DNA of 64,000 nucleotides from a virus. Positions 61,892-63,980 of the stretch are shown here, one piece after another. The stretch lies in IMG/VR virus record IMGVR_UViG_3300012642_000011, positions 64,001-128,000 of that record. The stretch is one strand, 5' to 3'. The translations under genes and the position numbers were made by a program. The notes beneath the pieces were generated by a model. That model made no database searches. It was not told where the DNA came from and saw nothing but the letters and a program-made list of their open reading frames with translations. Numbering within the stretch: the first letter of the stretch is position 1; every line of letters starts with the position of its first letter.

Positions 61892-61965
61892 GCCTCTGTA
61901 GCTCAGTTGGTTAGAGCATCCGCCTCTTAAGCGGCAGGTCGTGGGTTCAAGTCCCACTGGGGGCA
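61892..61965 (+). tRNA. tRNA-Lys (anticodon CTT)
   Basis: cloverleaf GCCTCTG-TA-GCTC AGTTGGTTA GAGC-...anticodon loop CTCTTAA...T-arm GTGGG TTCAAGT CCCAC, acceptor 3' TGGGGGC + A; several G-U pairs in the acceptor stem. Confidence 0.75.
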
Positions 61966-62134
61966 CTGAGAGAAAGTTAGTAAATCTTTCTCTTTTGTAC
62001 CTTGCAAGAACATCTTTATGATGCCATATCATAAGCAACGTGTTCATCAATGCAAGATAGGAGAATTTTACTCAGGAAACATCCTAACAATATTATTCTC
62101 CATAGCCAAAATTTCCTTCTCATGCAGAAGGTAT

Positions 62135-62207
62135 TCCCCTATAGCTCAATTGGCAGAGCATTCGGCTGTTAACCGAAGGGTTCCTGGTTCGAATCCAGGT
62201 GGGGGAG
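62135..62207 (+). tRNA. tRNA-Asn (anticodon GTT)
   Basis: TCCCCTA-TA-GCTC AATTGGCA GAGC, anticodon stem TCGGC/ACCGA, loop TGTTAAC, T-arm CCTGG TTCGAAT CCAGG, acceptor 3' TGGGGGA + G. Confidence 0.8.
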
Positions 62208-62295
62208 CAAAGAATGGCCGAAAACTGGTTCGAAACGGTATGCGGCGTCTTTAAGATCATGGTGTACAACATTGTCTTGAAGGTTTCTTTATTGT

Positions 62296-62363
62296 TCTTC
62301 TATGGTGTAAATGGAAAGCAAGCGTTCGTAGGAAAGGTGTAGGTTCGAATCCTGCTGGTAGAA
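62296..62363 (+). tRNA. tRNA-like element / probable pseudo-tRNA embedded in a 16-bp inverted repeat
   Basis: canonical T-arm GTAGG TTCGAAT CCTGC but no foldable D or anticodon arm; flanked by perfect 12-bp IR CTTTATTGTTCT (62287-62298) / AGAACAATAAAG (62360-62371). Confidence 0.25.
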
Positions 62364-62384
62364 CAATAAAGACATTCTTTTTAT

Positions 62385-62457
62385 GCTCCTGAAGCTCAAA
62401 TGGATGAGCGTCCGATTGAAGATCGGAAGGTTGTGGGTTCGATACCCACCGGGAGCA
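62385..62457 (+). tRNA. tRNA-Phe (anticodon GAA)
   Basis: GCTCCTG-AA-GCTC AAATGGAT GAGC-G-TCCGA TTGAAGA TCGGA-AGGTT-GTGGG TTCGATA CCCAC-CGGGAGC-A. Confidence 0.85.
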
Positions 62458-62507
62458 CTGTATCTTCGGATACTCAATAATTCTACGATGTGATGTAGAA
62501 TTATTAT

Positions 62508-62580
62508 GCCTGCGTAGCTCAATCGGGAGAGCGCCTGTCTGTCGAACAGGAGGTAGCCAGATCGAAACTGGTCGTAGGCG
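62508..62580 (+). tRNA. tRNA-Asp (anticodon GTC), atypical T-loop
   Basis: GCCTGCG-TA-GCTC AATCGGGA GAGC-G-CCTGT CTGTCGA ACAGG-AGGTA-GCCAG ATCGAAA CTGGT-CGTAGGC-G; A at position 54 and G37 are unusual. Confidence 0.65.
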
Positions 62581-62626
62581 CAAAGGTGGTTCGCAGTGAC
62601 ACCCTGTATGCGTAGGAACTGCGTTG

Positions 62627-62702
62627 GCCTCCATATACCCTCTGGCTACGAACCAGTAGAAAGGTTAATGGATACATGCAGGTTCGAGTCCTGCTGGGGG
62701 CA
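62627..62702 (+). tRNA. tRNA-like / degenerate tRNA (Arg ACG-like anticodon hairpin, no D-arm)
   Basis: 76 nt with acceptor GCCTCCA/TGGGGGC + A (identical to the tRNA-Arg at 63631) and T-arm GCAGG TTCGAGT CCTGC; a CTGG CTACGAA CCAG hairpin with U33/A37 sits where the D-arm should be. Confidence 0.3.
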
Positions 62703-62729
62703 CGAAAGAGATCAATAATCTCTTATCAT

Positions 62730-62810
62730 GCTGGTATGCCAGAGGTCTGGCACCCGGTCTGTAAAACCGGCGTCATAGCGACAAAGTGGGTTCGATACCC
62801 TCTGCCAGCA
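62730..62810 (+). tRNA. tRNA-Tyr (anticodon GTA), type II with long variable arm
   Basis: GCTGGTA-TG-CCAG AGGT CTGG; anticodon stem CCGGT/ACCGG, loop CTGTAAA; variable arm GTCATAGCGAC; T-arm GTGGG TTCGATA CCCTC; acceptor TGCCAGC + A. Confidence 0.75.
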
Positions 62811-62990
62811 CTGTGCTGACAAAGCACACATCCACAGGATGATCTTCTCTCTTAGATCACTGACAACAAATGGCAAGGTGGCCTGTGATCTGTAACGGGA
62901 AGAGAGAATTGCCACCATGAGGCTAGTCATGGCGTCTTTTGATGCAAGACGGTCCCGAGGAAACAGGGTGTCTGCTGTAACGCATCATAT

Positions 62991-63063
62991 GCCTCTTTAC
63001 TCCAATGGTAGAGAGAATCGGTTCAGATCCGATACAGTCTGGGTTCGACTCCCAGAAGAGGCA
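62991..63063 (+). tRNA. class-I tRNA with Leu anticodon CAG (non-canonical: no long variable arm)
   Basis: perfect cloverleaf: GCCTCTT/AAGAGGC acceptor, D-loop AATGGTAG, anticodon stem ATCGG/CCGAT, loop TTCAGAT, 5-nt variable loop ACAGT, T-arm CTGGG TTCGACT CCCAG, discriminator A. Confidence 0.6.
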
Positions 63064-63236
63064 CGCATGGACAAAAAGAAACGTTTGTCTCTGTATTTGT
63101 TGACACTTGATGCCAACACCAAGTTAGCGGGAGTGGTCCGTGGGATCACTCCGATGGTTCCATGTGACCTTCCACATGGCATCTTACGAAGACGAGATGA
63201 TCGCGGGGAAGCAGGTTGTTCTTGTAACGTCTTCAT

Positions 63237-63308
63237 GCCTCTCTATTCCAATGTAGAGAAACACGGCTAAGAACCGTGACAGTCTGGGTTCGACTCCCAG
63301 GAGAGGCA
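63237..63308 (+). tRNA. class-I tRNA with Leu anticodon AAG (paralog of 62991..63063; non-canonical)
   Basis: GCCTCTC/GAGAGGC acceptor, anticodon stem CACGG/CCGTG, loop CTAAGAA, variable ACAGT, identical T-arm CTGGG TTCGACT CCCAG, discriminator A. Confidence 0.6.
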
Positions 63309-63380
63309 CGGAAACATCAGTATGCCATGCTTCTACTATTGATAATATGCGTACAGTACTTTAAATCAAAGGAGCATATT

Positions 63381-63563
63381 ATGGTAGCAGATATCCAAGG
63401 ATGGCAACTGACATTTCTAGTTCTCGTTATTATCGTCAGCATCCTCCTTTTTGCTGGACTCCTTCTCATTATTAGGGGAATGAATCTTGGCAAGTCAGGG
63501 AGAAGATTCAGATCAGGGATGAATAATGAGACAACGCAGAAAACGGAGATGGACTCTCAGTAA
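63381..63563 (+). CDS. small single-TM protein (60 aa)
   Basis: AAAGGAG RBS, 7 nt, ATG 63381; MVADIQGWQLTFLVLVIIVSILLFAGLLLIIRGMNLGKSGRRF...; the longer ORF-track ORF 63276..63563 is rejected because its 5' part is tRNA sequence. Confidence 0.45.
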   Translation: MVADIQGWQLTFLVLVIIVSILLFAGLLLIIRGMNLGKSGRRFRSGMNNETTQKTEMDSQ

Positions 63564-63630
63564 CCATCAACGTCCGCTGATAAGCCTGATCGCGTTGTAG
63601 AGCACATGATAACACATGGTCGCTTTACAA

Positions 63631-63703
63631 GCCTCCATAGCTCAGTGGATAGAGCGTCTGACTTCGGATCAGAGGGCCGTGGGTTCAAATCCTACTGGGG
63701 GCA
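63631..63703 (+). tRNA. tRNA-Arg (anticodon TCG)
   Basis: GCCTCCA-TA-GCTC AGTGGATA GAGC-G-TCTGA CTTCGGA TCAGA-GGGCC-GTGGG TTCAAAT CCTAC-TGGGGGC-A. Confidence 0.8.
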
Positions 63704-63894
63704 CGATCTTGGTCAATCCAAGATTTGACTGACCATCACAAAAGTTTCTTTATCATTGCGGATTATCTACCCGCCAAAGAGAAAAGAAACAGAAATGTTG
63801 GATCAGATCAAGGAATAGTTATCTCAATTCTTGGATCTTCACCTGAAGAGATGAGAGATAAGAATACTGTGAGAACAAGCCGTTCTCATAGCAT

Positions 63895-63980
63895 GGTGTG
63901 TGAGATGGATGCTGGTTAGCCATGTCAGGTTGTGACCCTGATGACGAATGTCTGCGCGGGTTCAATCCCCGTCACGCACC
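63895..63980 (+). tRNA. tRNA-His (anticodon GTG) with G-1 and an unusually long variable arm
   Basis: extra 5' G pairing with discriminator C (bacterial His signature); GTGTGTG-AG-ATGG...CCAT; anticodon stem TCAGG/CCTGA, loop TTGTGAC; 14-nt variable hairpin GAC GAAT GTC; T-arm GCGGG TTCAATC CCCGT; acceptor CACGCAC + C. Confidence 0.6.

Follow-up and report, generated by a model that had tools for sequence, protein, structure and literature searches.

Two tRNA genes of type-I architecture with leucine anticodons in a viral tRNA array

Architecture, family and codon meaning of the two genes

Can a transfer RNA (tRNA) that carries a leucine anticodon on a short-armed, type-I body be an ordinary leucine tRNA in a virus of bacteria? 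The question is raised by a tRNA array near the end of a 64,000-nucleotide stretch of viral DNA (the window, positions 64,001 to 128,000 of IMG/VR record IMGVR_UViG_3300012642_000011), in which tRNA genes were called with ARAGORN and with the Rfam tRNA model RF00005 (gathering score 29 bits). A sequence-only reading of the window had singled out two class-I tRNAs with the leucine anticodons CAG and AAG and 5-nt variable loops, proposing either a scaffold foreign to bacteria or a recoding of CUN codons. ARAGORN and Rfam both recover the two genes as described:

62991..63064, + strand, type-I tRNA-Leu(CAG) (ARAGORN; Rfam 54.5 bits)
63237..63309, + strand, type-I tRNA-Leu(AAG) (ARAGORN; Rfam 48.9 bits)

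The anticodon register is not shifted in either gene, with the two programs in agreement and U33 present in both 7-nt anticodon loops. Both genes fold as clean cloverleaves of 73-74 nt, comprising a 7-bp acceptor stem, U8, a 3-bp D-stem closed by a C13.A22 mismatch, a 5-bp anticodon stem, the variable loop ACAGU, a standard T-arm and A73, with C13.A22 as the only non-standard pair. At 5 nt, the variable loop falls short of the long arm of canonical type-II tRNA-Leu, a stem-loop of more than 10 nt. The CAG gene has the D-stem CUC/GAG followed by C13.A22, the D-loop AAUGGUAG, the anticodon loop UUCAGAU, an A15:U48 pair, the T-loop UUCGACU and A73, and CCA is not encoded. The AAG gene has the anticodon loop CUAAGAA and the D-loop AAUGUAG, with a single G at the G18G19 site. 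The core typical of recognition by leucyl-tRNA synthetase (LeuRS), consisting of A73, U8:A14, A15:U48, AAY(N)GGYAG with G18G19 and A20a, and C13.A22, is present in full in the CAG gene and complete except for one G of G18G19 in the AAG gene.

The two genes are a tandem duplication with a unit of ~245 bp, including a conserved leader of ~65 nt. Twelve differences separate the copies, namely four compensatory pairs, three anticodon-loop positions (the wobble base among them) and one deletion of a D-loop G in the AAG copy. From the CAG to the AAG copy, pair 7:66 changes from U:A to C:G, 10:25 from C:G to U:A, 27:43 from A:U to C:G and 28:42 from U:A to A:U, with no pair broken between the copies. 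This substitution pattern indicates that both copies are under structural selection. Additionally, the genes are identical or nearly so on six independent metagenome contigs, the sole change lying at T-loop position 59, which varies across the wider family to which they belong.

That family was delineated with the pattern CCAA-N1-3-GGYAGAGR-N26-29-GTTCRANTC, which combines the D-arm motif, type-I spacing and the T-loop and leaves the anticodon unconstrained. The scan covered IMG/VR (first 120 loci) and GTDB contigs with one genome per species (first 120 loci), and the family counts given here refer to the matches listed. Leucine anticodons are carried by 127 of 130 tRNAs from IMG/VR and by 119/119 from GTDB, figures that express specificity and not prevalence, the motif having been derived from leucine tRNAs. 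All six leucine anticodons occur in IMG/VR (taa 56, tag 37, caa 21, cag 6, gag 4 and aag 3). Actinomycetota account for 102/120 genome loci, including Mycobacterium, Nocardia, Rhodococcus, Gordonia, Corynebacterium, Bifidobacterium, Nocardioides and the low-G+C Nanopelagicales. At 98/120 genome loci the gene stands alone within 8 kb, and these solitary copies are therefore housekeeping chromosomal genes, not members of a mobile array; most of the non-actinobacterial matches lie in arrays or on short contigs.

Conservation within the family agrees with leucine charging. A73, U8 and U48, which the pattern leaves free, do not vary among 239 distinct members, while A14/A15, G18G19 and C13.A22 also occur in all 239, at positions that the pattern fixes. 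The conserved positions coincide with those that Giege and Eriani list as determinants for bacterial LeuRS, namely A73, A14, the A15-U48 Levitt pair, G18G19 and A20a, the long arm not being required (PMC9976931). Standard pairs make up 98.5% of the family stems, where most positions show 3-6 pair types; the variable loop measures 5 nt in 123/129 viral members, and a G1.U72 wobble tops the acceptor stem in about a third of members (75/239). The recovered actinobacterial chromosomal genes share one architecture, in which the D-arm reads NNCC-AAYNGGYAG-AGNN and the variable loop reads NNAGU. Identity of the window genes is 81-84% with IMG/VR Leu(TAG) genes and with a chromosomal Leu(CAA) from Glycomyces, and no more than 61% with the type-II Leu genes that share their array. 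By sequence, both are members of this leucine-specific type-I family.

Experimental precedent for leucine on such a body comes from Streptomyces coelicolor, where one type-I tRNA-Leu(CAA) accompanies four type-II isoacceptors and a single LeuRS leucylates both types (Fan, Huang, Ji and Wang, NAR 2019, PMC6614811). The Escherichia coli LeuRS is unable to charge the Streptomyces type-I tRNA-Leu, an ability conferred by the leucine-specific domain of the actinobacterial enzyme (PMC6614811). A paper on the toxin MenT3 likewise implies long loops in only 3/5 tRNA-Leu of Mycobacterium tuberculosis (PMC11541572). The proposal that a class-I body with a leucine anticodon is foreign to bacteria consequently fails, type-I tRNA-Leu being native in Actinomycetota and leucylated in Streptomyces (PMC6614811). 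Such a tRNA is normal in the most plausible host group, Actinomycetota, a circumstance that the sequence-only reading had itself named as one that would overturn its view.

The meaning of the CUN codons was examined in the ribonucleotide reductase (RNR) gene of the phage, which contains 17 CTG, 45 CTT and 22 CTC codons. Aligned with 118 homologues, these codons face leucine in 54-62% of residues, and TTG does so in 61%. Since metagenome relatives might share a hypothetical recoding, the comparison was repeated against 19 named cellular actinobacterial NrdE only, giving leucine at 63% for CTG, 54% for CTT, 63% for CTC and 62% for TTG. CTG, CTT and CTC therefore align with leucine as TTG does, and the suggestion that CUN codons are recoded through charging with another amino acid does not stand. 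The bodies of both tRNAs agree, with C3:G70 (not G3:U70), A73 (not G73), no G-1, a 7-nt anticodon loop and no long arm.

Taken together, both genes are very probably genuine type-I leucine tRNAs, their architecture native to Actinomycetota and spread through phage arrays, and charged with leucine in the usual way. Several points weigh against this view. The window has 41% G+C, which is low for most Actinomycetota, and the inability of the E. coli LeuRS to charge type-I tRNA-Leu means that charging needs a compatible LeuRS from the host or the phage. Both copies carry A37 and not G37 (m1G37), usual for CUN readers. The AAG copy is without one of G18/G19, and a type-II tRNA-Leu(AAG) lies further along the array, so that this copy is possibly redundant or weakened. 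On the side of method, the leucine-derived scan motif belongs here too, and the recoding test covers one gene, that for RNR.

Proposed role and competing explanations

A tandem duplication of ~245 bp produced the two leucine genes, with the anticodons diverging afterwards to CAG and AAG. Once expressed, the transcripts would be processed by RNase P and receive CCA by addition, followed by leucine charging by a host LeuRS that accepts armless tRNA-Leu, as the actinobacterial enzyme does. The charged tRNAs would decode CUG and CUU/CUC as leucine, supplementing translation. CTT is the commonest leucine codon in the window (25.4 per 1000), and all five leucine tRNAs of the array read CUN codons. 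Similarly, AAG is the preferred lysine codon in the window, matched by two Lys(CTT) genes in the array. Codon supplementation by an array built from actinophage-type tRNAs would be the simplest account of the benefit.

A more specific history is conceivable, though rather unlikely. An armless Actinomycetota scaffold, mainly reading UUR codons, would have been captured by phages and turned into CUN readers through single anticodon changes, leaving A37 as a fossil. It would persist either through escape from toxins (MenT/AbiE-type nucleotidyltransferases that find type-II tRNAs by the long arm) or through the need for a LeuRS with an adapted leucine-specific domain. Position 37 bears on the first part of this history: in the listed viral contigs, CAG members have A37 in 7/7 cases and TAG members have 24 A vs 13 G, and the listed genome TAG members have 3 A vs 15 G. 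Phage CUN readers of the family thus mostly have the A37 that UUR readers carry, which fits an origin by single A36-to-G anticodon changes. If the variant with an adapted LeuRS were true, the presence of a type-I tRNA-Leu in a phage genome could serve to mark the host as actinobacterial or similar.

Evasion of host defence, which is compatible with both genes being ordinary leucine tRNAs, would hold that the armless tRNA-Leu and other altered tRNAs of the array are kept because a host toxin or nuclease recognises tRNA-Leu by its long arm or anticodon loop. This appears improbable as the reason for their retention. The genome does encode an RNA ligase of relevance here:

10923-12386, T4 RnlA-family RNA ligase open reading frame (ORF) (Pfam PF09511 44.3 bits; phrog_562 E=6e-47)

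In phage T4, the RnlA family repairs tRNA that has been cut by an anticodon nuclease. Recognition through the arm also has a parallel in the nucleotidyltransferase toxin MenT3, which needs the long loop of tRNA-Ser and accepts a tRNA-Leu variant with a reoriented arm as a substrate (PMC11541572). However, chromosomes of Actinomycetota natively carry the type-I architecture, which need not be an escape variant, and therefore no escape explanation is required. Moreover, the type-I genes read CUG and CUU, yet the phage also has type-II readers of CUN codons that keep the long arm.

A further alternative is that one or both type-I genes, especially the AAG copy, are functionless duplicates in decay, like the tRNA remnants nearby. 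The missing G of G18/G19, the lower Rfam score of the AAG copy (48.9 vs 54.5 bits), the downstream type-II Leu(AAG) and the pseudogenes of the array all lean in that direction. However, the four compensatory double substitutions without a broken pair, the integrity of every stem and the near-identity across six independent contigs, with change confined to the family-wide variable position 59, count against decay. In Streptomyces, the bldA tRNA-Leu(UAA) is functional despite the native absence of G19, and the integrity of the elbow is minor for the charging of type-I tRNA-Leu (PMC6614811). Loss of function is accordingly quite unlikely.

Sense-codon recoding, in which another synthetase would charge the class-I body and CUG and/or CUU/CUC would be read as a residue other than leucine during infection, can draw on the unusual body and on the general precedent set by yeast nuclei and by mitochondria, where unusual tRNAs reassign CUN codons (yeast tRNA-Ser/Ala with CAG, mitochondrial tRNA-Thr/Ala with UAG; PMC7609411), but it is extremely improbable and close to refuted, given codons that align with leucine as often as TTG does, the absence of G3:U70 (Ala), of G73 with a long arm (Ser), of G-1 (His) and of an 8-nt anticodon loop (yeast mitochondrial Thr, derived from tRNA-His), the conserved A73, A15:U48 and Leu-type D-loop, a scaffold that carries all six leucine anticodons and almost no others, and its acceptance of leucine in Streptomyces (PMC6614811).

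With the two genes read as leucine tRNAs, several consequences follow for the interpretation of phage arrays. A class-I tRNA with a leucine anticodon in a phage is no evidence of recoding or of a foreign scaffold. Type-I tRNA-Leu is far more widespread than the single experimental paper implies, extending across Actinomycetota and many phage arrays with all six anticodons, and pipelines and reviews stating that bacterial tRNA-Leu is type II are incomplete. Since the Streptomyces type-I tRNA-Leu is not charged by the E. coli LeuRS, dependence on such a tRNA may limit a phage to hosts with a compatible LeuRS, a restriction that could aid host prediction for uncultured huge phages.

The array, its irregular members and the region upstream

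ARAGORN reports nine tRNA genes, all on the + strand, between 61892 and 63981, and Rfam RF00005 additionally detects two degenerate tRNA-like remnants that ARAGORN does not call. Besides the two leucine genes, the array within the window contains:

61892..61966, + strand, tRNA-Lys(CTT), canonical (ARAGORN; Rfam 66.8 bits)
62135..62208, + strand, tRNA-Asn(GTT), canonical (ARAGORN; Rfam 68.5 bits)
62296..62363, + strand, tRNA-like remnant A, probable pseudogene (Rfam 26.7 bits, below the gathering score of 29)
62385..62458, + strand, tRNA-Phe(GAA), canonical (ARAGORN; Rfam 61.5 bits)
62508..62581, + strand, tRNA-Asp(GTC) with A54 and A60 (ARAGORN; Rfam 58.1 bits with alignment)
62627..62702, + strand, tRNA-like remnant B, probable rearranged tRNA-Arg(ACG) pseudogene (Rfam 30.5 bits)
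62730..62811, + strand, tRNA-Tyr(GTA), type II, with a 4-nt D-loop (ARAGORN)
63382..63564, + strand, small ORF of 60 aa (sequence; gene call on all source contigs)
63631..63704, + strand, tRNA-Arg(TCG), canonical (ARAGORN; Rfam 70.5 bits)
63896..63981, + strand, tRNA-His(GTG), 86 nt (ARAGORN; no Rfam tRNA match at the gathering score)

The initial description of an array of 11 members holds for these genes and remnants, though not for the whole extent of the array, which runs at least 4 kb past the window end on source contigs and totals at least 20 tRNAs. The part beyond position 64000 corresponds to 16240-20198 of contig L010 (window position equals L010 position plus 47786) and encodes Glu-ctc, a second His-gtg, three type-II Leu, Ile, Met, a second Lys-ctt, Ser-tga and Glu-ttc. 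The type-II leucine genes are tRNA-Leu(GAG) of 87 nt, tRNA-Leu(TAG) of 84 nt and tRNA-Leu(AAG) of 87 nt. A defective tRNA with a 2-nt 'anticodon' also occurs in this outer part of the array.

Both remnants had been noticed as degenerate tRNA-like genes before the Rfam search, which detects them. Remnant A retains an intact T-arm and a recognisable D-arm, with a truncated anticodon arm (13 nt vs 18 expected) and a mismatched acceptor stem. It does lie in an inverted repeat, as had been observed, but the repeat is not a clean 16 bp; it amounts to 13 bp perfect (62286-62298 / 62360-62372) or 16/17 with one mismatch. A repeat search of the region at a minimum of 14 found none around this remnant. 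In remnant B, the Rfam alignment confirms the acceptor stem identical to that of tRNA-Arg(TCG) and the ACG hairpin described from the letters, CUGG-CUACGAA-CCAG, which resembles an anticodon arm. Its T-arm is intact and its D-arm cut to 4 nt, with a 17-nt insert containing the D-loop-like sequence AAUGGAUA at the variable position. From these defects, both remnants are probable pseudogenes.

All seven tRNAs first taken as ordinary are in the nine-gene ARAGORN list, but tRNA-Tyr is not ordinary. It has the long variable arm found in bacteria together with a 4-nt D-loop (AGGU) on an extended D-stem, resembling the D-arm of tRNA-Sec. It goes unreported by the general Rfam tRNA model, and the highest-scoring Rfam family is tRNA-Sec, whose gathering score of 47 its 40.7 bits do not reach. 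The A54 reported for tRNA-Asp is present, within the T-loop AUCGAAA, which has A60 too. The 14-nt variable hairpin attributed to tRNA-His is also found, the region UGACGAAUGUCUGC containing a 3-bp hairpin; this 86-nt tRNA has G-1:C73 and A8 in place of U8. A second tRNA-His (75 nt; A73, with G at -1) follows 120 nt further on, beyond the window end. Isotypes that are normally type I also have long variable regions in the relatives of this element (Asn of 83 and 87 nt, Gln of 86 nt), and in other phage arrays such regions are sporadic, in roughly 2% of genes. Given these cases, the 86-nt tRNA-His fits a pattern in which arrays of this kind constrain the variable region only loosely.

Active turnover of tRNA genes, one of the explanations originally offered for the array, gains support from the 245-bp tandem duplication of the leucine genes and from the decayed copies. 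The remnants, A54 in tRNA-Asp, the long variable region of tRNA-His and the small D-loop of tRNA-Tyr reflect the fast gene turnover, by duplication, divergence and decay, that is typical of large tRNA arrays in phages. The six source contigs differ by 0-6 single-nucleotide polymorphisms in 2.3 kb, too few to judge the conservation of the remnants or of the 86-nt tRNA-His.

Among the protein-coding frames, the small ORF between the Leu-aag and Arg-tcg genes has an AGGAG ribosome-binding site and a hydrophobic, transmembrane-like segment. An ORF of 113-117 aa at 62917/62929-63270, which overlaps both leucine tRNAs, is probably spurious. Just upstream of the array, a stretch of ~1.2 kb without an ORF of at least 100 aa (one 34-aa ORF is called) contains a tandem repeat:

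60848..61106, + strand, 114-bp tandem repeat, 2.3 copies, 85% matches (repeat and promoter-like site search)

Every copy of the repeat includes a near-consensus extended -10 match to a sigma-70-like promoter, TTGACA-17-TG-TATGAT, at 60834, 60949 and 61063. Within 60700-64000, 18 promoter-like sites were found vs 5.7 expected. The three matches in the repeat are candidate promoters for the tRNA array.

The element, its relatives and comparison with known systems

The window has ~41% G+C, nearly all genes on one strand and long runs of ORFs without a family match. Recognised genes encode HNH endonucleases, UvsX-like, DnaB-like and sliding-clamp proteins, the RnlA-family ligase, a TnpB-like protein and the intein-interrupted RNR, whose homologues include many intein-bearing NrdE of Mycobacterium and Nocardia. 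Genes outside the array that help to characterise the element are as follows:

20156-22645, 51649-52791 and 55821-57134, wall genes of Gram-positive type: class A penicillin-binding protein (PBP), multi-PASTA protein and G5-domain protein
38718-43298, class Ib ribonucleotide reductase large subunit, 1526 aa, with inteins (Hint, intein-splicing and LAGLIDADG domains)
43492-44271 and 44824-46125, ADP-ribosyltransferase (exoenzyme/toxin family) and TnpB-like protein (OrfB_IS605 with a Cas12f-like TNB domain)
52871-53530, SpoU-family RNA 2'-O-methyltransferase, near the array and conserved in relatives L137 and L138

The class A PBP comprises transglycosylase, transpeptidase and PASTA domains, and the G5-domain protein has an aggregation-promoting-factor C-terminal domain. 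Against the TrmL, TrmH and RlmB models, the SpoU methyltransferase gives weak matches in all cases, far below the cut-offs.

The same sequence is present on metagenome contigs of up to 437 kb, and the PBP together with an SNF2 helicase defines a clade of metagenome contigs of 0.44-0.83 Mb. The clade apparently consists of very large phages, and the element is provisionally regarded as a huge phage. A cellular origin with a small genome, suggested by the PBP, a signal peptidase and the contigs of 0.4-0.8 Mb, was provisionally rejected in view of the family-less ORF runs, the HNH endonucleases, the inteins and the UvsX-like, DnaB-like, clamp and RnlA modules. The 64-kb window showed neither a capsid nor a terminase gene. 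Assignment of a host through the PBP returned, as its best 120 homologues, only metagenome proteins of the same clade.

Searches in GenBank phages and IMG/VR found no close relatives, with blastn matching isolated tRNAs only; an exact scan with the T-arm and acceptor sequence gave 0 matches, and a protein-based locus search recovered relatives at 28-31% only. The relatives L137 and L138 (~52-54% helicase identity) also have a tRNA array following the SNF2 helicase, in the corresponding position but composed of different genes. These arrays, at 13482-15436 of L137 and 14705-16417 of L138, contain a type-I Leu-tag (74 nt), A34 tRNAs (Pro-agg and Leu-aag) and the long Asn and Gln genes. The remnants and the leucine pair are not traceable in them, and the contig of a 97% relative (L136) ends before the array.

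Literature searches for a dedicated description of phage type-I tRNA-Leu gave only a passing remark, which notes a short variable loop in the tRNA-Leu(TAG) of a phage-like tRNA cluster from Mycobacterium (Behra et al., BMC Evol Biol 2019, PMC6582537), and a review of non-canonical tRNAs makes no mention of them (PMC7609411). The animal mitochondrial tRNA-Leu(UUR) is one parallel, being likewise type-I with identity drawn from A73 and A14 without a long arm (PMC9976931), but it belongs to a different lineage with a loose structure and its own LeuRS, and the S. coelicolor LeuRS does not charge it (PMC6614811). The Mycobacterium clusters resemble the window in placing an armless, CUN-reading tRNA-Leu in a mobile tRNA array; unlike the window, they are integrated in bacterial chromosomes, and the paper gives no family-level analysis (PMC6582537).

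Cultured phages provide further counterparts, with blastn of the region matching annotated short tRNA-Leu genes of such phages in GenBank. The annotated tRNA-Leu(CAG) of Gordonia phage Nedarya (MH316566, 5783-5857; 75 nt) has the same acceptor stem GCCUCUC, C13.A22, A15:U48, A73 and CAG anticodon, and the annotated tRNA-Leu(TAA) of Synechococcus phage Sf-FR1 (PV340855) also joins a type-I body to a leucine anticodon. These are single genes or small clusters in phages of 53 kb and 196 kb, whereas the window genes form a tandem pair within an array of at least 20 genes in a genome of several hundred kb.

The S. coelicolor tRNA-Leu(CAA) is the experimentally characterised counterpart, sharing with the window genes the 5-nt variable loop, coexistence with type-II tRNA-Leu, U8:A14 and A73, a likeness drawn through other actinobacterial members of the family and not through its own sequence. 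It differs in reading UUG, whereas the window genes read CUG and CUU/CUC, carry A37, do not encode CCA and reside in the tRNA array of a huge phage-like genome. Type-I tRNA-Leu is already known as a class, and the new element is the addition of these two genes to its members.

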